Assembly: GCA_964422865.1 (NCBI GenBank)
Contig: CAYRCU010000004.1
Span: 1 to 61,265, forward strand
Direction of reading: 5' to 3'
From: an uncultured Gammaproteobacteria bacterium
GTDB taxonomy: Bacteria > Patescibacteriota > Microgenomatia > UBA8517
Length of the DNA: 61,265 nucleotides
Position numbers and translations under genes: made by a program. The notes beneath the pieces were generated by a model. That model made no database searches. It was given only the letters and a program-made list of their open reading frames with translations, and was not told the origin of the DNA. Shown here in pieces: positions 14,945 to 50,145 of the stretch. The first letter of the stretch is position 1; every line of letters starts with the position of its first letter.

Positions 14945-14974
14945 TAGTTGTAATGATTCATATCATTACGTGTT

Positions 14975-16588
14975 ATGGATCATCTTAGTCGTTTCTTTTC
15001 TCTTTCTAGGATTGGGGATAAAAACCCGGAAGTGGTTGAAGAGGTGACAAGATTAGGCTTTGAGGAGCTTCTTGAGCCTCCTAAAAATCTTTCTACAGAC
15101 AGGTCTAGGTTTAAACTTCAGAGGGAGCTGTACAGGAAGCTGAGTGGTGGAGATGACATTAGTTGGGAGGAGGCGGTATTTGGAATAAAGTCTCTTCCCG
15201 GTTTTTCTGCCCCAGAAAGATTTTATGAGGGACTGAAGATAACAAGGCTTCCTGACCCAATAATCAAAAATGCAGAGATTAGAAAGTTATATGCGCTTTT
15301 TATTTTAAATCACCCTGAGAGAATAAAGGCTTTAATGAGTTCTTATAAACTTGGGTTTCGAAAACCTTCACTTGGACATTCGAGAGTTCTTGATCGAGCG
15401 GAGACGGAACACAGGCTTATTTCGTTTTCGGATGTTGCAGCCGTGCAGCCTGAATTATCAAGTGACAGATTGCACAGGAGAAAACTTCTTTCTCAAGGTC
15501 CTTTTATCGCAACGTCTTTGAAAGAAAAAGGGGGTGTTAGACTGCCGATTGCGAGCGGGTCCATGATAACCGGTAATCCGGAGATGATTGCAACAATAGC
15601 AATGTGCGGTGTTCTTGCAACCGTGTATAGAGAAGGGCTTTGTTCGAGTCCCAAAGTTCAGGCAAAGATAACTTCTGCGGCGGTTGAAATCTTGCACAGG
15701 GCAATTGAAGATAAACTGTGGGACAAACATCCATACAGAAAGGTTCTGCTTGATTTTTGGCTTTCTCAGATAGGGATAACTGTTGGTGTTAACACGAGAG
15801 ATGCTGTTCAAAGAGTAAAACTGGTTATGCCCCTTATAACTGGCGCCAAGTTAAATGGTATTGCGGTACGGGTCTATAATCCCCAGGTGTCAAAGGAGAC
15901 GGTTGAAACAGTTAAGGTTTTAAGAAAGGAGTTTGGTGATGTTCTTGAGATTTTTGCGGGTCAAGCAAATAGTGTGGAAGCTGCGCAGGAGCTTGTTGAA
16001 GCTGGAGCTGATGCAATTGGACAAGGCATTGCGGGCGGGCTAAGGTGCACCACTTCAATTGTAAGTGGGGTGGCGGTTTCCGTGTTGAGAGATTTGTGGA
16101 GAATGAGAGGAAAGGTTGATGCACCAATATTTGTGGACAGCAGCGTATCTTATTTTTGGTCTTTGGCCTATCTTCTTGGAGCTTCAATGCTGGTAAAGCC
16201 CAGTCATATGGTTGGGATAGAGTCTATTGGAGGAAGGTTTCCTTTTTTTGACGGGAAGGACTATTACATTGCTTATAATGGTGAGGCTTCTGGAATAACC
16301 AAAGAGCATACTGGTAGATTGATGAGGAACGGCATGCCCTTTGCACCTGAGGGGGTTGGTGGTTTTGCAAAATTGGATCTTAGGTTATTGACGATTCCTG
16401 ATCAGATACTTGATGCGGTGATAAATTTTCTTATCCCGCCTTTTGTTTTTCAGGGGACTTTGAGTGGAAGGAGGTTTGAAAGCATTGCGGACATGCACAA
16501 AGAGTCGGACTTGGAGTTTTTATGGGAATTGTCGGAGGAGTCAAGAAAGGTTCGTGGAGCTTGGGGTCCGGTGTTTCACAATAGGTGA
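14975..16588 (+). CDS. Highly divergent IMP dehydrogenase/GMP reductase-family TIM-barrel protein with ~145 aa N-terminal extension
   Basis: ISFSDV (cf. LTFDDV), LPIASGSM (cf. IPLVSAAM), EAGADAIGQGIAGGLRCTT (cf. GADAVKVGIGPGSICTT), YNGEAS, PEGV. Confidence 0.8.
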   Translation: MDHLSRFFSLSRIGDKNPEVVEEVTRLGFEELLEPPKNLSTDRSRFKLQRELYRKLSGGDDISWEEAVFGIKSLPGFSAPERFYEGLKITRLPDPIIKNAEIRKLYALFILNHPERIKALMSSYKLGFRKPSLGHSRVLDRAETEHRLISFSDVAAVQPELSSDRLHRRKLLSQGPFIATSLKEKGGVRLPIASGSMITGNPEMIATIAMCGVLATVYREGLCSSPKVQAKITSAAVEILHRAIEDKLWDKHPYRKVLLDFWLSQIGITVGVNTRDAVQRVKLVMPLITGAKLNGIAVRVYNPQVSKETVETVKVLRKEFGDVLEIFAGQANSVEAAQELVEAGADAIGQGIAGGLRCTTSIVSGVAVSVLRDLWRMRGKVDAPIFVDSSVSYFWSLAYLLGASMLVKPSHMVGIESIGGRFPFFDGKDYYIAYNGEASGITKEHTGRLMRNGMPFAPEGVGGFAKLDLRLLTIPDQILDAVINFLIPPFVFQGTLSGRRFESIADMHKESDLEFLWELSEESRKVRGAWGPVFHNR

Positions 16589-39972: not shown

Positions 39973-40683
39973 ATGAGTGGACACAGTAAATGGTCGACAA
40001 TAAGGCGGAAGAAGGAAGTAAAGGACATTTCCAGAGGAAAGGTTTTTTCGAAGCTTTCCAAGGCGATCTTTGTTGCGGTAAGAACAGGTGGAGGGGCTGA
40101 TGTCAGTTCTAACTATAAGCTTCGTGTGGCGATTGATGCTGCGAGGGCCGCGAATATGCCAAAGGAAAATATTGAAAGGGCAATTTCTAAGGGAAGTGGA
40201 GCGGGGGAGCATATTGAAGAGGTGGTATATGAGGGATTTGGCCCTGGGAAAGTGGGGATCTTAGTTGAGACAGCTACTGATAACAGGAACAGAACGGCGC
40301 AAGAAATGAAGGGGCTTTTTGAAAAGATGGGGGGGAGCCTTGGAGGGCCGGGATCCGTGATTCATAATTTTGAGAGCAAGGGATATATATTAGTGGAGCC
40401 CGTGGGAGACGTGGATGAAGATATACTGGCACTTATTGATCTTGGAGTGGAAGATGTCTCGAGTGAGAATGGAAACATAGTCGTATGGGTTCCCGCTGAG
40501 GATTTGAATAAGTTTGTTGGGAAGATTGAGAGTGTTGGATTTAGGGTGAAAGAGACGCAACTGGTTAAGAGACCATTGGCTAAGATTTCTTTAAGTGAGA
40601 AAGATGAAGAGAGATTGATGAAGATAGTTTCAAACTTAAGAGAACACGACGACGTTCAGAGAGTTTTTCACAATGCTCAGTAA
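39973..40683 (+). CDS. yebC: YebC/PmpR/TACO1-family protein
   Basis: MSGHSKW, NMPKENIERAI, YEGFGPG, TDNRNRT, DDVQRVFHN. Confidence 0.96.
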   Translation: MSGHSKWSTIRRKKEVKDISRGKVFSKLSKAIFVAVRTGGGADVSSNYKLRVAIDAARAANMPKENIERAISKGSGAGEHIEEVVYEGFGPGKVGILVETATDNRNRTAQEMKGLFEKMGGSLGGPGSVIHNFESKGYILVEPVGDVDEDILALIDLGVEDVSSENGNIVVWVPAEDLNKFVGKIESVGFRVKETQLVKRPLAKISLSEKDEERLMKIVSNLREHDDVQRVFHNAQ

Positions 40684-41446
40684 AAGAGTCAGATTTATTA
40701 TTTCTTCGGTGTTTTTGAGTCTTGGTTTTATTGGGATTGGTTTTTTGGAGGATCGGTTGAGAATGATTGGAATAGTTGTATTGAGTTTTGGGACTTTGCT
40801 TTTTTCTGTTTGGTCTTTATGGGAGGGATTAGGGTTTAATGCTACTCTTTTGGCCTTGATTTTGCCGATTTCCTTTACATTGGGGGTAGGATTGTTTTGG
40901 TTTCTTTTGCCTTCAAGCCTTTTGGCTCGGCTTCCCGTGGTCTTGGTGTATGGGGTGGGAACGTATGCATTGGGTTCTACGATGAACATTTTTACGGTTT
41001 CTGCTGTTCGAAACATTGCACTTGTGCGGGCCGCTAAGGGGGTTGGTTTTGTGGCCACTTTGTTTGTGATGTTTCTTCTTTTTGATGCTATTCTTTCTTT
41101 GAGAACTTCCGTATCGATTCTTTTTGGATTAGTGTTTATTGTATCTTTTCCTTTGCTTTTGCAAGGACTTTGGATGAGCAAGTTGAGTTTGAAATTGTCC
41201 GGGGATGTTTTGATATTTTCTCTGGTTTTTTCTTATAGCTTGAGTCTTTTGTCCGTTGTTATGTATTTTTGGCCGGTGAGTGTGGTTGTGGGAAGTTTGT
41301 TTTTGACGGTTGGGGCATATGAGTTGTTGGGTTTAGGTCAGGTTGAGCTTGAAGGGAGGCTTTTTAAACGGACAGTGAGAGAATATTTGACGGTTGGTGT
41401 GATGGTTTTTCTGTCGATGCTTTTTGCAACCAGCTGGCGGGGCTAG
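40673..41446 (+). CDS. Multi-pass membrane protein of unknown function
   Basis: About 9 TMs; overlaps yebC stop. Confidence 0.8.
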   Translation: MLSKRVRFIISSVFLSLGFIGIGFLEDRLRMIGIVVLSFGTLLFSVWSLWEGLGFNATLLALILPISFTLGVGLFWFLLPSSLLARLPVVLVYGVGTYALGSTMNIFTVSAVRNIALVRAAKGVGFVATLFVMFLLFDAILSLRTSVSILFGLVFIVSFPLLLQGLWMSKLSLKLSGDVLIFSLVFSYSLSLLSVVMYFWPVSVVVGSLFLTVGAYELLGLGQVELEGRLFKRTVREYLTVGVMVFLSMLFATSWRG

Positions 41447-41490: not shown

Positions 41491-41514
41491 ACATCCTATA
41501 ATGTTATAGGATGT
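41491..41514. repeat. Perfect palindrome ACATCCTATAA-TG-TTATAGGATGT
   Basis: 11 bp arms, 2 bp centre, followed by TTT; terminator or protein-binding site. Confidence 0.85.
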
Positions 41515-42234: not shown

Positions 42235-43206
42235 GTGAGACACTCAAAAAATACAGAGTTACCCTCAAAGATTGAAGATTTTTTAGAGTATTTACAAGTT
42301 GAGAAGGGTTCTTCCCCTCTTACGATTCGCAACTACAGACATTATTTGGATAGGTTTTTGGGCTGGATGGAAATGGAGGGAATCAGGCAAAGTGTGAAAG
42401 ATATTAATCCCGAGGTTGTAAGGATGTACAGAGTGTATCTTTCGAACTTGCCGGCTCGTCCGGCAAAAGTGAAAGGAAAAAATTTTTTACCTATATCTTC
42501 GAAAACTCAAGGATATCATGTGATTGCCCTGAGGAGCTTTCTTAAGTGGCTTATTAAAAATGATTATAAAGTAATGAGCCCGGACAAAATTGAGCTTCCA
42601 AGAATAAAAGAACGACAGGTTAGCTTTTTGACCGGAGAGCAAGTTGACAGGATGTTGAATGCTCCGACACTTTCCACTATTTCCGGGAAGCGTGATAAGG
42701 CAATCCTTGAGATGTTTTTTTCAACAGGACTTCGGGTAAGTGAGTTGGTGGGTATTGATCGGGATGATATAGACTTTGACAGACGAGAACTGGGTATTGT
42801 GGGTAAAGGAGGAAGAGCCAGGGTAGTGTTTTTGTCGGCTCGTGCCGCAGATTGGCTTCAAAAATATTTGGATGCAAGACATGATAAGTACTCTCCCCTA
42901 TTTATTCGTCACAGTGGAAGGGTGGGACCTGGTGTGTCGGATGAAAAGATGAGGCTTACTCCCAGGTCGGTTCAGAGAATGGTTAAAAAATATGCCAGAA
43001 AGATGAAGATCCCTGTGGAGGTTACACCACACGTCTTGAGGCATAGTTTTGCTACGGATCTTCTTATGGCGGGGGCTGATATAAGAAGTGTTCAAGAAAT
43101 GCTTGGGCACAAAAATATTGCCACAACTCAGATTTATACTCATGTGACAAATAAACAGTTAAGGGAAGTTCATGAAGCTTTTCATGGAAGAGGTGGAAAA
43201 AAGTGA
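42235..43206 (+). CDS. XerC/XerD-family tyrosine recombinase
   Basis: SAM-like FLEYL..EKG.S..TI.NY; TGLRVSEL, GKG, PHVLRHSFAT, LGH, TTQIY (all catalytic residues present). Confidence 0.95.
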   Translation: MRHSKNTELPSKIEDFLEYLQVEKGSSPLTIRNYRHYLDRFLGWMEMEGIRQSVKDINPEVVRMYRVYLSNLPARPAKVKGKNFLPISSKTQGYHVIALRSFLKWLIKNDYKVMSPDKIELPRIKERQVSFLTGEQVDRMLNAPTLSTISGKRDKAILEMFFSTGLRVSELVGIDRDDIDFDRRELGIVGKGGRARVVFLSARAADWLQKYLDARHDKYSPLFIRHSGRVGPGVSDEKMRLTPRSVQRMVKKYARKMKIPVEVTPHVLRHSFATDLLMAGADIRSVQEMLGHKNIATTQIYTHVTNKQLREVHEAFHGRGGKK

Positions 43207-43210
43207 ATTG

Positions 43211-43234
43211 TCTATTGATATGTATCAATATAGT
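43211..43234. repeat. Palindromic direct repeat, copy 1 (in promoter spacer)
   Basis: TCTATTGATATGTATCAATATAGT; core TATTGATA-TG-TATCAATA sits between TTGTCT (-35, 43208) and TAGTAT (-10, 43231). Confidence 0.9.
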
Positions 43235-43242
43235 ATAAAGGT

Positions 43243-43692
43243 GTGACGCAGATTTCTCGACGAACGCTTGGTCCGAAGGTTTGGGACAGAATATATGACT
43301 TGTTTTTGGAGACTGTTTCGAGTTTCAGTGACAAGAAAAAGTTGGGGCGTTTTCTTGATGATTTTTTGACTCCTACGGAGAAGATTATGCTTTCGAAGCG
43401 ATTAGCTATTGTAGTACTTCTTTCCAAGGGACACGACTACAGATCAGTTTGTGAACTTTTAAAGGTGACTCCTACTACGGTTTCAAAGATGAGTTTGAAA
43501 GTTAGGTATTCGAATGAAGGGATAAAACCTGTTATTGGCGATATTTATAAAAAACAGGCTTTGAAGGTGCTTTGGGAAGAAATGAGGGATGTGTTTGATT
43601 TACCTACTAAGGCAACTTATAAGTCGCCTTCGAGATATAAGAGGATATATTTGCGAAGGAAGAAAGTTCAGAGATTGAAGAGTGAATTTTGA
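43243..43692 (+). CDS. TrpR-like (YerC/YecD) helix-turn-helix protein
   Basis: FLDDFLTPTEKIMLSKRLAI..LL.KG.DYR.V..LLKV...TV TrpR/YerC pattern. Confidence 0.85.
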   Translation: MTQISRRTLGPKVWDRIYDLFLETVSSFSDKKKLGRFLDDFLTPTEKIMLSKRLAIVVLLSKGHDYRSVCELLKVTPTTVSKMSLKVRYSNEGIKPVIGDIYKKQALKVLWEEMRDVFDLPTKATYKSPSRYKRIYLRRKKVQRLKSEF

Positions 43693-43699
43693 ACTTCGC

Positions 43700-43723
43700 T
43701 CTATTGATATGTATCAATAGAGT
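43700..43723. repeat. Palindromic direct repeat, copy 2
   Basis: TCTATTGATATGTATCAATAGAGT; 20 bp identical to copy 1; 11 bp arms (43699-43722) between convergent stops. Confidence 0.9.
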
Positions 43724-43726
43724 GGA

Positions 43727-46333
43727 TTATTTTTTTTCTAGGGTGGTGACTGCGGCAAGGGAGTCGTCTTTTTTGGCAAATCTCATGAGAATTACTCCTT
43801 GGGTACTTCTTCCCATTTGAGGGATGTTTTTGATGGGAAGCTTGATTATTTGCCCTTTGGCGCTTGTGAGGATTGCCTGGTCATCGTTTTGAGTGACCAG
43901 AACTGCTGAGGCGAGAGGGCCTGTTTTGGTGTTTAGAGCCATTGCTTTTACCCCTTTCCCGCCGCGGCGCTGTGTTGGGAAAAGGTCAACTCTTGTTCGT
44001 TTTCCAAGGCCACTCTCGCTGATTGTAAGGATATCTCTGAACAGTTTTTTTCTTTTGTCCTTTGGAACTTTGAGTTTTTCCGAGAAAACTTCCATTCCTA
44101 TTACGCAGTCTTTGGGATCCAGGCGGATTCCTTTCATCCCTTTGGTGGCTCGGCCCATTGGACGTACGTCTTTTTCGCTGAATTTGATTGCTTTTCCATT
44201 TTTTGTGAGAAGCATGACGAGATCGTTACCTGTGGTTGGTTGGATTTTGACCAAAGTGTCCCCTACCCCAAGGCGCATTGCGATCAAGCCGTTTGCTCGG
44301 AGATTTGAAAAATGTCTGAGTGCTGTCTTTTTTACGACGCCCTTATTGGTAACCATCATGAGGTGATTACTCTTCTTTTCCCCCATGGCTACTACCGAGA
44401 GAACTGTTTCTCCCTGATTAAGATTGACAAGATTTACCAAAGCCTGCCCCTTGCTCTGCCTGGCTGTTTCGGGTATTTCCCATACACGGGTTCCAAATAC
44501 TCTGCCTCGATTTGTAAAGAACAGGATTGTGTCGTGGGTGGAGGCTCTAAGGAGGTGTTCGATTTCATCTTCCTCTTTTGTGGTCATACCTATTACTCCC
44601 TTACCCCCTCTTCTTTGGGTTTTGTATGTTCCGACGGGTACTCTTTTGACATAGCCTGTTTTTGTGATAGTGACGAGAGTTTCTTTTTTTGCTATCAAAT
44701 CTTCTTCCGTGAATTCGCCTATTTTTTGTTTGTAGATTCTGGTTCTTCTTTTATCCCCGTGTTTTTCGTCCAGTTTTTTAAGCTCTTTTACGATTATATT
44801 TAAAACTTCTTTAGGATTATTAAGAATTGAAACCAGCCGATCGATAAGACTCATGATCTCTTTGTATTCTTTGTCTATTTTTTCTCTTTCGAGTGCTGCG
44901 AGGCGCCTTAGTTGCATGTCTAGAATTGCTGTTGCTTGAACTTCTGTCAGCCCGAACTTTTTAATAAGATTTTTCTTTGCGTCTTCTTGAGTGCGGGATG
45001 CGCGAATCGTTTTTATGACAGCGTCCAGGTTGTCGAGAGCAATTTTCAAACCTTCCAGAATATGGGCGCGTTTTTTTGCCATTGTGAGATCGAAGATTGT
45101 TCTTCTGACGATTACTTTTTGGCGATGTTTTATGTATTCAACTAGAATTTGTTTTAGATTTACCGTGTGGGGAGTGCCGTTTACCAGAGCTACAAAGTTG
45201 GCCGGGAAAGTGGTTTGGAGCTTGGTGTATTTGAAAAGATTGTTTAAAACGTTTTTCGGGCGAGCTTCGCGCTTCAATTCAATTACAACACTCATTCCCT
45301 TCTTGTCACTTTCATCTCTGAGTGCGGAGATTCCCTTTAACTTTTTGTCTTTAACAAGGAGAGCGATGTGTGACACGAATTTTGCCTTGTTGACTTGATA
45401 GGGCAGCTCCGTGACCTCGATAATGGATTTTCCTCTGGATCCTTCCTTGATTTCTGCTATTCCTCTGACTGATATACGGCCGCGACCGGTTGAGTAGACA
45501 TCCACAAGTGACGGAGTGTCGTAGATGGCTCCTCCGGTGGGAAAATCCGGGGCGGGAATGAACTTTGTGAGCTCTTCTATGGTAATGTCGCTTTCAAAGC
45601 TGGCTTTCGTGGCTGTCTCTTTTTCTGAAAGGTTCTTTTTTTGTTCTCCAGAGGCGATTAAATTTATTTTTTCGATGAAGAACTCCACTTCTTTTTTTTG
45701 GGTTTCTTCTTTGACAACGGGCTTGCCTTTTTTGATGGTTGCGATGATTGCCGCAACGACCTCGGAGAGGTTGTGAGGGGGAATTTTTGTTGCCATTCCG
45801 ACGGCAATTCCTTCGGAGCCCATGAGGAGCAAGTTTGGCAGGAGAGCCGGGAGATATACAGGTTCTTTTAGAGTTGCATCGAAATTGTCTGAATAATCTA
45901 CTGTATCTTTTTCGATATCAACGAGCATGTAAGGTGTGATTGGGGCAAGTTTTGTTTCTGTGTAACGCATGGCAGCTGCCGGATCTCCGTCGATTGATCC
46001 AAAGTTTCCTTGACCATTTACTAAGGGGTAGCGCAGGTTAAAGTCTTGCGCCATTCTGACCATTGCGTCGTAGACTGCGGTGTCTCCATGGGGATGGTAT
46101 TTTCCTAAGACTTCTCCGACGACTTTGGCGCTTTTGGTGAAAGCTGCTTTAGGCTGAAGACCCATCAAGTGCATTGCGTAGAGAATTCTTCTATGGACAG
46201 GCTTTAGGCCGTCACGAATGTCCGGGAGGGCGCGGGCGACTATTACGCTCATGGCGTAATTCAGATAGCTTTTTGAGAGCTCTGTGGTTATATTTGTTTC
46301 TTCAATTTTTCCTGTGTTTGTGTGGTTAGACAT
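43727..46333 (-). CDS. gyrA: DNA gyrase subunit A
   Basis: [23 protein letters not shown], GyrA-box QRRGGKG, C-terminal pinwheel. Confidence 0.97.
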
Positions 46334-49227: not shown

Positions 49228-50061
49228 CTATAAAATGTATATGTCTTGGTAGGAGCTTGTTGAGACCTTTTCTCCTTTCCCTTTAAGAATTGCTTCGTAT
49301 GGGAGGCAGTGAGTGCAACCATTGTCTCCTTTGGGACACTTGAAATGTTCCAAGGACCTAGCAAGTTTTATTCTTTTTCCGATTGTAAGTAGTTTTTTAT
49401 GAGCGGTTGAAAGGTCGGGGAGGCTTACTTTGGTGGGGGCGTTTTTTAACTCGAGATACCAAAAGCTTGCTTTTGAAACGGGACGGCTTTGTGTGTTTGT
49501 GGCAAGAAGATGGTAAATGAGGAGCTGGAGTGAGTTTTTCTCCTCTTCTTTGCGGCGGTTGGTTTTAAAGTCTATGATGTGGACCGAGTCGGAGTTTTCA
49601 ATGTATTCCAGCCAGTCGATTTTTCCACAGAGGATTATTTCTTCATCACTGCTTAACCAGTAATTTGGAAGATTTAGATCCGCTTTGATTTTTATTGCTT
49701 TTTTTAGGATGGGTCCCGGGTTTTTCTCGATTTTTTTGAGCATTTGGACTCCTCTTTCTTTGTACTCGTCCTCTTGGCTTTTTGATTTGAATCCGCCCTT
49801 TTTGCCTGCTACTTTTTCCCAAGATTTCTCGAACCTTTTTAGGAGGGGTGTTTTGAGGCGTTCTTCAACGGGCAGGGTTGATAAGGATTCGATAGTATCG
49901 TGGACGGCTTGGCCCAATGCCAGGGGAGGAGAGATAATTGATATTTTTTGCCTCGTTAGGGGGTCTTTGTAGACGGCGCGAAGATAATATAGTCTGGGGC
50001 ATTTTAGGAAATCTGAGATACTTGAGTGGCTTATCCAAGTAGCTTTGTAGGGATCCGGCAT
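49228..50061 (-). CDS. PD-(D/E)XK nuclease (RecB/AddB-like)
   Basis: S.SSISDF..CPR.YY, G..VH..IE, GKID, IIDFKT, QL.IY, C-terminal cysteines. Confidence 0.88.
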   Translation of the reverse strand: MPDPYKATWISHSSISDFLKCPRLYYLRAVYKDPLTRQKISIISPPLALGQAVHDTIESLSTLPVEERLKTPLLKRFEKSWEKVAGKKGGFKSKSQEDEYKERGVQMLKKIEKNPGPILKKAIKIKADLNLPNYWLSSDEEIILCGKIDWLEYIENSDSVHIIDFKTNRRKEEEKNSLQLLIYHLLATNTQSRPVSKASFWYLELKNAPTKVSLPDLSTAHKKLLTIGKRIKLARSLEHFKCPKGDNGCTHCLPYEAILKGKGEKVSTSSYQDIYIL

Positions 50062-50145
50062 TTAGTTATTTTACCATTTTTAACCTTTGAGGAGGGAATT
50101 TTAGTTGGAATTGGGGGTTGGGCCTTCTTTTCAGGTGTCATGGTT

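Follow-up and report, generated by a model that had tools for sequence, protein, structure and literature searches.

A TrpR-fold regulator gene of Patescibacteria bracketed by matching palindromes, a candidate autorepressor with a second operator behind its stop codon

The bracketed gene between xer and gyrA

The DNA analyzed here, hereafter the window, is a stretch of 61,265 nucleotides (nt) from an uncultured bacterium of the Patescibacteriota (contig CAYRCU010000004.1 of assembly GCA_964422865.1). It represents contig C4 of a genome of 766 kb in 28 contigs with 41.5% G+C, to which we refer as G000. Between the gene of an Xer-type tyrosine recombinase and the gyrA gene the window carries a small gene coding for a TrpR-like protein, and the same palindrome is found directly upstream and directly downstream of this gene. 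We think it probable that the gene encodes an autorepressor of the TrpR/HisR fold, with one operator that overlaps its own promoter and another at the 3' border of the gene.

The 20-mer TCTATTGATATGTATCAATA occurs without mismatch at positions 43211-43230 and 43700-43719. A chance origin of this repeat was rejected, since 0.00 matches were expected from 100 dinucleotide-preserving shuffles. Extended to 24 nt (43211-43234 and 43700-43723), the two copies differ in a single position (T/G) and lie 489 bp apart, and the palindrome TATTGATA-TG-TATCAATA is found in both. In the downstream copy it extends to 11-bp arms and is a perfect 11-2-11 palindrome at 43699-43722. On the outer sides the neighboring genes come very close: the open reading frame (ORF) of the recombinase ends, stop codon included, at 43206 and hence 4 nt before the first copy, and the ORF of gyrA ends at 43727, 4 nt past the second copy, which lies between the stop codons of the regulator gene and of gyrA. 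The original prediction, made from the letters of the window, had described the repeat with its mismatch and spacing, the palindromic nature of both copies, the single TrpR-like gene enclosed by them and their position relative to both neighbors, and all of this was confirmed. Two contigs of a public sequencing run overlap and stop at 43673-43686, right before the downstream palindrome; this is probably a break of the assembly graph due to the repeat or the palindrome.

Table 1. Position of the regulator gene, its candidate control sites and the neighboring genes in the window
Feature	Position	Strand	Remarks
Candidate operator O-up (upstream palindrome copy)	43211-43234, core 43213-43230	.	Center 21.5 nt 5' of the GTG
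Candidate operator O-down (downstream palindrome copy)	43695-43736, 24-mer 43700-43723	+	Center 18.5 nt 3' of the stop codon
Putative core promoter	43208-43236 (TTGTCT 43208-43213, 17-nt spacer, TAGTAT 43231-43236)	+	Read from the sequence; the palindrome is the spacer
TrpR/YerC(HisR)-fold regulator gene, 149 amino acids, GTG start	43243-43692	+	Sole ORF between the copies
Xer-type tyrosine recombinase gene, 343 amino acids	42175-43206	+	Neighbor, outside the module; Pfam Phage_integrase 148.7 bits
gyrA, 868 amino acids	43727-46333	-	Neighbor, outside the module, convergent with the regulator gene; Pfam DNA_topoisoIV 516 bits, DNA_gyraseA_C 223 bits

The product of the bracketed gene, a protein of 149 amino acids (aa), matched the Pfam family Trp_repressor (PF01371) over residues 19-97 with 43.8 bits (cut-off 27). 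It stayed below the cut-offs of the NCBIfam models for YerC/YecD (TIGR02531, 28.4 versus 42.2 bits) and TrpR (TIGR01321, 17.3 versus 67.25 bits). An AlphaFold2 model, for which 28 relatives served as input, reached a predicted local distance difference test score (pLDDT) of 84 and contains five TrpR-type helices, followed by two further C-terminal helices (residues 94-118 and 129-148) that account for about 50 extra residues. When this model was compared with the PDB using Foldseek, the top matches were the YerC-like structures 3kor, 3frw and 3g1c, and then E. coli TrpR. The target-normalised TM-score was 0.86 for 3frw, with a root-mean-square deviation of 1.7 over 90 columns, and 0.74-0.79 for E. 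coli TrpR. Foldseek assigned a probability of 1.00 to 3frw and to E. coli TrpR, yet the E-values were only 5e-3 or weaker. A phmmer search of the PDB sequences agreed and recovered 3frw with an E-value of 4.6e-6. Judged by the model, the regulator is an all-helical protein of the TrpR fold with a helix-turn-helix (HTH). Neither Pfam nor Foldseek detected a nuclease or HUH-Y1 domain in it, and both returned only matches to TrpR-fold or HTH families.

These results are best explained if the regulator belongs to a large, Patescibacteria-specific subfamily of about 147-150 aa, in which the TrpR core is extended by two C-terminal helices. The closest relatives of the gene were found in records labeled Candidatus Woesebacteria, and more distant ones came from further groups of the Microgenomates and from a few records labeled Parcubacteria or Saccharibacteria. 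A search with the family profile returned 2330 clusters (50% identity) at E <=1e-10, and 206 of them at E <=1e-30. In a protein search of 60 related genomes and the genome of the window itself, homologs were present in 54 of the 61 and fell into two types, a long one of about 145-150 aa, to which the window gene belongs, and a short one of about 110-120 aa. G000 also has a short TrpR-family paralog (a 123-aa open frame) at C5:32407-32631 on the minus strand, beside metG. The metG-like gene is the next one downstream, and the start of its product was read by eye as that of a methionyl-tRNA synthetase. The same layout, a short paralog upstream of a metG-like gene, was seen by eye in several relatives (among the short-type loci L023-L033).

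The palindrome pair across the family

At long-type genes one and the same palindrome precedes the start codon and follows the stop codon, and its sequence varies from gene to gene. The flanks of ten short-type loci (110-119 aa) share only words of 6-8 nt, so none of the ten has such a pair, and no flanking palindrome was found at the short paralog of G000. We then combined the window locus with 80 further loci from a collection of species-representative genomes, and 71 of these 81 loci, all from Patescibacteria and mostly from Microgenomates, were usable. A segment shared between the upstream and the downstream flank and scoring at least 14 was present in 64 of the 71. If the upstream flank of one locus was compared with the downstream flank of another, this score was reached in 34 of 419 comparisons, a control that is inflated because orthologs use the same palindrome. 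In a stricter test, a paired 26-bp palindrome with at least 18 of 26 positions identical was recovered in 73 of 97 non-redundant loci.

The geometry of the pairs is similar throughout the family. Measured in 43 loci, the palindrome center lies at a median of 19.5 nt before the start codon (interquartile range 16.5-24) and, at the other end, 16 nt after the stop codon (interquartile range 12-20). The median distance from center to center is 484 bp. The family consensus reads TACTT.AATGATTT|AAATCATT.AAGTA, and the centers of the palindromes span 0-2 nt. Among the 73 paired loci the downstream neighbor is co-directional in 40, convergent in 31 and absent in two. The second copy is therefore part of the 3' end of the regulator gene and not simply the promoter of the next gene. 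Upstream and downstream copies are equally palindromic (11.4 versus 11.6 of 13 positions, Wilcoxon p 0.18), while a role as RNA hairpin only would predict greater perfection of the downstream copies.

Palindrome and protein vary together. This became apparent in a relative with a genome of 1.14 Mb (G019), which we analyzed whole. Here, 15 profile matches represent 14 genes, one of which is split across two contigs; two other genomes with multiple paralogs, G022 and G030, gave seven matches each. In nine of the 13 unsplit family genes of G019 a gene-specific word of at least 16 nt recurs on both sides, and a single palindrome is shared by the two parts of the split gene. The palindrome sequence differs between paralogs and matches within each locus. 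Together with the pairs in 73 of 97 loci, this is in line with the original prediction, which had proposed to check whether paralogs are flanked by palindrome pairs of their own that co-vary with the HTH sequence. Furthermore, one G019 paralog that is 44% identical to the window protein has the palindrome core of the window and a similar recognition helix. Mutual information between protein columns and operator positions peaked at residues 3 and 7 of the N-terminal arm and at residues 76-80, where the recognition helix starts; these peaks are uncorrected for phylogenetic relatedness and thus only suggestive.

Beyond the pair, further copies of the palindromes exist. In G000 the 18-mer core, with its 2-nt center left free, occurs four times with at most one mismatch, and the next-best matches have four mismatches. 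The two extra copies are located at C3:44085, within an ORF for a 564-aa membrane protein, and at C10:16099, in an intergenic region. No decayed paralog was detected near the orphan site at C10:16099 with the family hidden Markov model in six-frame ORFs of at least 60 aa. Eight palindrome classes were tabulated for G019; seven have 1-6 further genomic copies and one has none. These copies mostly fill short intergenic gaps, mostly right after stop codons, and some are placed inside ORFs (uvrA, recX, a PMT-type glycosyltransferase gene and a Wzy-like gene). At the uvrA and recX sites residues are replaced without any indel compared to the G000 ortholog, hence these sites arose in place and not by insertion. 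In one class a core of up to 27 nt is near-identical over eight copies. Long perfect palindromes are frequent in both genomes, with 47 in G019 (2-4 in shuffles), mostly 26-mers of the form ACT...AGT, and ten in G000 (0-2 in shuffles).

Several other sequences were noted during this survey. A gene with a HEPN_LA2681 domain (G000 C10:15002-15820, minus strand; positions 404-1222 of locus L004) lies 279 nt from the orphan copy at C10:16099, and a 42-codon ORF on the strand of the HEPN gene is situated between the two. At window positions 14951-14968 we found a variant palindrome, GTAATGAT-TCAT-ATCATTAC, with three differences from the operator core, two of which form a symmetric pair. Its center is about 15 nt 5' of the ATG of a gene for a 537-aa protein with an IMPDH/GMP-reductase domain (14975-16588), and a TTGACA box is present upstream; judging from its sequence, the same regulator may use this variant as a weaker site. 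Just 3' of a gene for a DUF5656 membrane protein (40673-41446), at window positions 41491-41514, lies a perfect 11-2-11 palindrome, ACATCCTATAATGTTATAGGATGT, which has no second copy in the genome and is not of the family type. The 2.2-kb contig C28 of G000 contains a 36-bp perfect palindrome at 2124-2159, with 18-bp arms and ACT...AGT ends, and another perfect palindrome at positions 1-24. In G019 a GC-rich 20-bp palindrome, CCTGCCTGCCGGCAGGCAGG, which is unrelated to the family motif, occurs three times (C28:310, C3:61760 and C5:88324).

Autorepression and competing explanations

We propose that the product of the bracketed ORF acts as a dimeric TrpR-fold DNA-binding protein and that the palindrome of 24-26 bp would be its operator. 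Transcription from the putative promoter (Table 1) would begin at or next to the GTG and give rise to a leaderless or near-leaderless mRNA. Since the upstream palindrome fills this core promoter, the protein would repress its own gene. The downstream copy, directly 3' of the stop codon, would be a second operator for the same protein and would mark where the transcription unit ends on its 3' side. As a roadblock or terminator it could stop read-through as well as convergent transcription of gyrA, and it could also be the second anchor of a repression loop of about 490 bp. The few other copies of the palindrome in the genome are probably targets of this protein too, which would consequently control a small regulon. 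Clear TTGAC-type -35 boxes lie beside several homologous sites in individual loci, whereas the aggregate profile of the family flanks showed a T-rich upstream flank and no promoter consensus.

The downstream copy in the window can, by its sequence, also serve as a terminator, because on the plus strand it consists of a 14-pair stem followed by TTATTTTTTT with a predicted folding energy of -17.2 kcal/mol (z = -4.0). It fits the pattern of an intrinsic (Rho-independent) terminator on this strand only. RNA folding of the upstream copy, in comparison, is poor (-3.9 kcal/mol, z = -0.14).

Several results weigh against this proposal or parts of it. The original prediction had read TTGTCT and TAGTAT around the first copy as a promoter; both elements are present as described, but they match only 8 of 12 consensus positions and, as our promoter scan required 9 of 12, are absent from its listing. 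An AAGG shortly 5' of the GTG start could instead indicate a short leader. Autorepression with a second operator had likewise been suggested before, and it fits the co-varying pair that overlaps the promoter region and recurs past the stop codon across the family. The loop that was part of this suggestion fared less well: the center-to-center distances showed no helical phasing (periods 10-11.3, Rayleigh p 0.33-0.97, tested in the 63 of 73 loci with a distance below 520), so that looping is left without specific support. T-tracts following the downstream copies are not enriched (10 of 73 loci versus 284 of 1460 background windows, 19%), hence a canonical terminator role is not general across the family. 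The genes beside the extra sites have no common functional theme, and the sets of flanking genes do not overlap between G000 and the G019 paralog with the same palindrome core. Finally, the differences between the two copies of a locus were compensatory across the arms in 37 cases, one-sided in 119 and of another kind in 11, while about 21 two-sided differences, about seven of them complementary, were expected. The compensatory differences cluster 8-10 nt from the palindrome center. Such changes are not predicted if a dimer reads each half-site independently. They suggest that hairpin or cruciform formation matters, or that template-switch correction or mutation bias keeps the palindromes perfect.

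A more far-reaching idea, possible if unlikely, is that the regulators and palindromes of Patescibacteria make up a large, radiating collection of modules that are mutually orthogonal. A 26-bp palindrome of its own would permanently enclose each TrpR-like gene and serve as a portable boundary element, combining promoter, operator and hairpin, that is copied to or created at other gene junctions and inside ORFs. This would be a co-evolving partnership similar to that of REP (repetitive extragenic palindromic) sequences and RAYT proteins, built on an HTH protein and with the hairpin or cruciform state of the DNA as part of the mechanism.

One may also ask whether regulation is involved at all. 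The palindromes could primarily be structure-forming elements of gene boundaries, that is RNA 3' hairpins or terminators or DNA cruciforms, which were spread or homogenised as short repeats, and the TrpR-like protein would then be a cognate partner in the style of REP/RAYT without a classical regulon. The arm co-variation described above speaks for such elements, and so do the near-identical core of the eight-copy class, the dominance of ACT...AGT 26-mers among the long perfect palindromes of G019, the preference for junctions right after stop codons, the poor conservation of flanking genes and the terminator pattern of the downstream copy in the window. RAYT genes, as far as the literature available to us goes, also occur as single copies, are inherited vertically and are associated with palindromes of their own. 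However, the protein has an HTH fold with no nuclease or HUH-Y1 domain detected, the copies per class number 2-8 and not hundreds, and the sites in ORFs arose without indels. Both copies are equally palindromic, although only the downstream one is part of the gene's own transcript, the upstream copy is a poor RNA folder and T-tracts are not enriched. Moreover, the same core is found in two genera despite proteins of only 44% identity, which speaks for a recognition code under constraint and against a fast turnover of repeats. We therefore consider this explanation improbable and prefer the TrpR-fold autorepressor with two operators at its own gene.

The original prediction had offered a third possibility, namely that the 489-bp unit is a mobile mini-cassette that was inserted into a palindromic xer/gyrA terminator and can be excised by the adjacent tyrosine recombinase via the direct repeats. 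In the window, the copies are indeed in direct orientation with the same TG center, and the xer gene ends right before the first one. The gene is variably present at the xer-gyrA junction of relatives, and some genomes have many paralogs. The neighboring recombinase passes the cut-off of the NCBIfam model XerA_Arch (232.5 bits, cut-off 220) and stays below those for XerD (254 versus 329.6) and integron integrases (121.8 versus 265), and is by these scores of the chromosomal Xer type. G000 and G019 have one Xer-like gene each (tblastn), which in G019 faces at least eight palindrome classes. An Xer gene was found within 2 kb in only 8 of the 81 loci. Based on Pfam-annotated neighbors, positionally conserved groups have xer upstream (the window locus, G022 and G032) or are located beside genes for M23 peptidase/LTD, S7/EF-G, RecR/Prs or gyrB. 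The orientation of the pairs also argues against excision: among 73 pairs 43 are fully symmetric and have none, 23 match better as direct and seven better as inverted repeats, and the ten pairs with asymmetric centers are direct in seven cases and inverted in three. The palindromes have centers of 0-2 nt and not the asymmetric recombination core of 6-8 bp that had been read into the window copies.

Empty junctions with a single remaining site were likewise not found. In the DNA downstream of gyrA from 30 genomes, xer lies within 1.5 kb in 12. The regulator gene is present in three. In four of the 12 it is missing, and only 3-62 nt separate the abutting xer and gyrA genes; none of these four junctions has a comparable palindrome. 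The window gene belongs to a clade of 16 rows with a support of 100/100, whose xer-adjacent members come from several genera and several subclades, each with its own diverged palindrome, and this implies long residence at the xer position. By sequence comparison the window gene is thus a member of an old, positionally conserved group. The results speak for a long-resident gene family that expanded through duplications, each of them followed by divergence of the operator. The contigs from three runs of one sample, probably the source, contained no joins across the unit, indels or variants, although contigs cannot reveal rare excision. Taken together, Xer adjacency, class count, pair orientation, junctions and clade argue against excision by the neighboring recombinase, and we reject the mini-cassette as very improbable.

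The region between xer and gyrA differs among relatives in other respects. In G019 (C2:39212-51832) the interval between the two genes is about 11 kb long and contains two TrpR-like paralogs. One (40902-41348) lies about 940 bp from the end at gyrA, and a single ORF separates the other (49668-50114) from xer. The open frame of gyrA has 1111-1733 aa in G023, G024, G037, G044, G045 and G046 compared to about 870-890 aa elsewhere, which suggests inserted elements such as inteins in some relatives.

Relation to known systems and meaning for Patescibacteria

Within its own fold, the closest comparison is YerC, which has been identified as HisR, a TrpR-family histidine repressor with 20-bp palindromic operators; according to the parts of the article accessible to us, it controls its own gene in about half of the genomes that were analyzed (PMC9413887). 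The window protein shares the fold and passes the cut-off of the same Pfam family, and in the same parts of that article palindromic operators of about 20 bp, commonly in front of the regulator's own gene, are described for HisR (PMC9413887). The palindrome here is longer (24-28 bp), and a matching palindrome right after the stop codon is the rule, for which the account of HisR, in these parts, has no counterpart (PMC9413887). In contrast to HisR and TrpR, the window protein has about 50 additional C-terminal residues forming two helices. Members of the TrpR family contact a palindromic operator as intertwined dimers and respond to a small-molecule corepressor; the window gene has a palindrome that looks cognate and co-varies with the protein. 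HisR operators lie in front of genes for the biosynthesis or uptake of histidine, whereas a Pfam analysis of the genes flanking the palindromes inspected in G000 and G019 detected neither his nor trp genes.

Repressors with auxiliary operators and looping are well known from lambda CI, with OL and OR flanking the immunity region, and from LacI with O1, O2 and O3. As in these systems, the regulator gene would lie between operators that its own product recognizes, and the specificity would differ among related modules as in heteroimmune phages. Yet the fold is another one, the unit described here comprises a single gene in about 480 bp without detectable helical phasing, and, unlike lambda CI, the genes are chromosomal at housekeeping loci and not part of a prophage.

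RAYT genes are flanked by their own palindromes. REP/REPIN-RAYT systems, in the portion of their literature available to us, further resemble the modules described here in that a single-copy, vertically inherited gene is linked to a cognate palindrome, that different classes coexist and that copies reside in extragenic gaps at gene ends. Here, the palindrome flanks the gene and dispersed copies exist, but beyond the pair there are only two in G000 and 1-6 for most classes of G019, and ORFs contain some of these, where tens to hundreds are typical of REP sequences. The protein has the fold of an HTH regulator rather than that of an HUH-Y1 (IS200/IS605-like) transposase, and the palindromes overlap promoters at a fixed distance from the start codons.

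In pdif/IMEX Xer modules one genome-wide type of Xer site is used, with arms around a central region of 6-8 nt. These modules and integron cassettes share with the window a short gene unit between recombinase-type repeats and a tyrosine recombinase gene next to it. However, the sites described here are not of one dif-like type per genome, lack a center of 6-8 nt and mostly have no orientation, and Xer adjacency is limited to one orthologous group. In contrast to integron cassettes there is no array, only a single unit between housekeeping genes, and the recombinase scores below the integron-integrase cut-off. The original prediction knew of no described element with this layout; our literature searches, which covered PMC9413887 without its supplements, likewise found no description of the bracket layout or of the subfamily.

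On the reading we prefer, the bracketed layout is a variant of an autoregulated TrpR-family repressor, and the second operator after the stop codon is its new element. To our knowledge, almost nothing is known about transcriptional regulation in Patescibacteria, also called the Candidate Phyla Radiation. Both the conserved site behind the stop codon and the co-variation of the arms could be addressed by simple experiments. For each member of the family the probable operator can be read from both flanks of the gene, and this yields dozens of natural regulator/operator pairs with differing specificity, up to about ten of them per genome. Such pairs would constitute a data set for deciphering the recognition code of the TrpR fold and a source of orthogonal repressor parts, and they would open a route to predicting small regulons in uncultured organisms.

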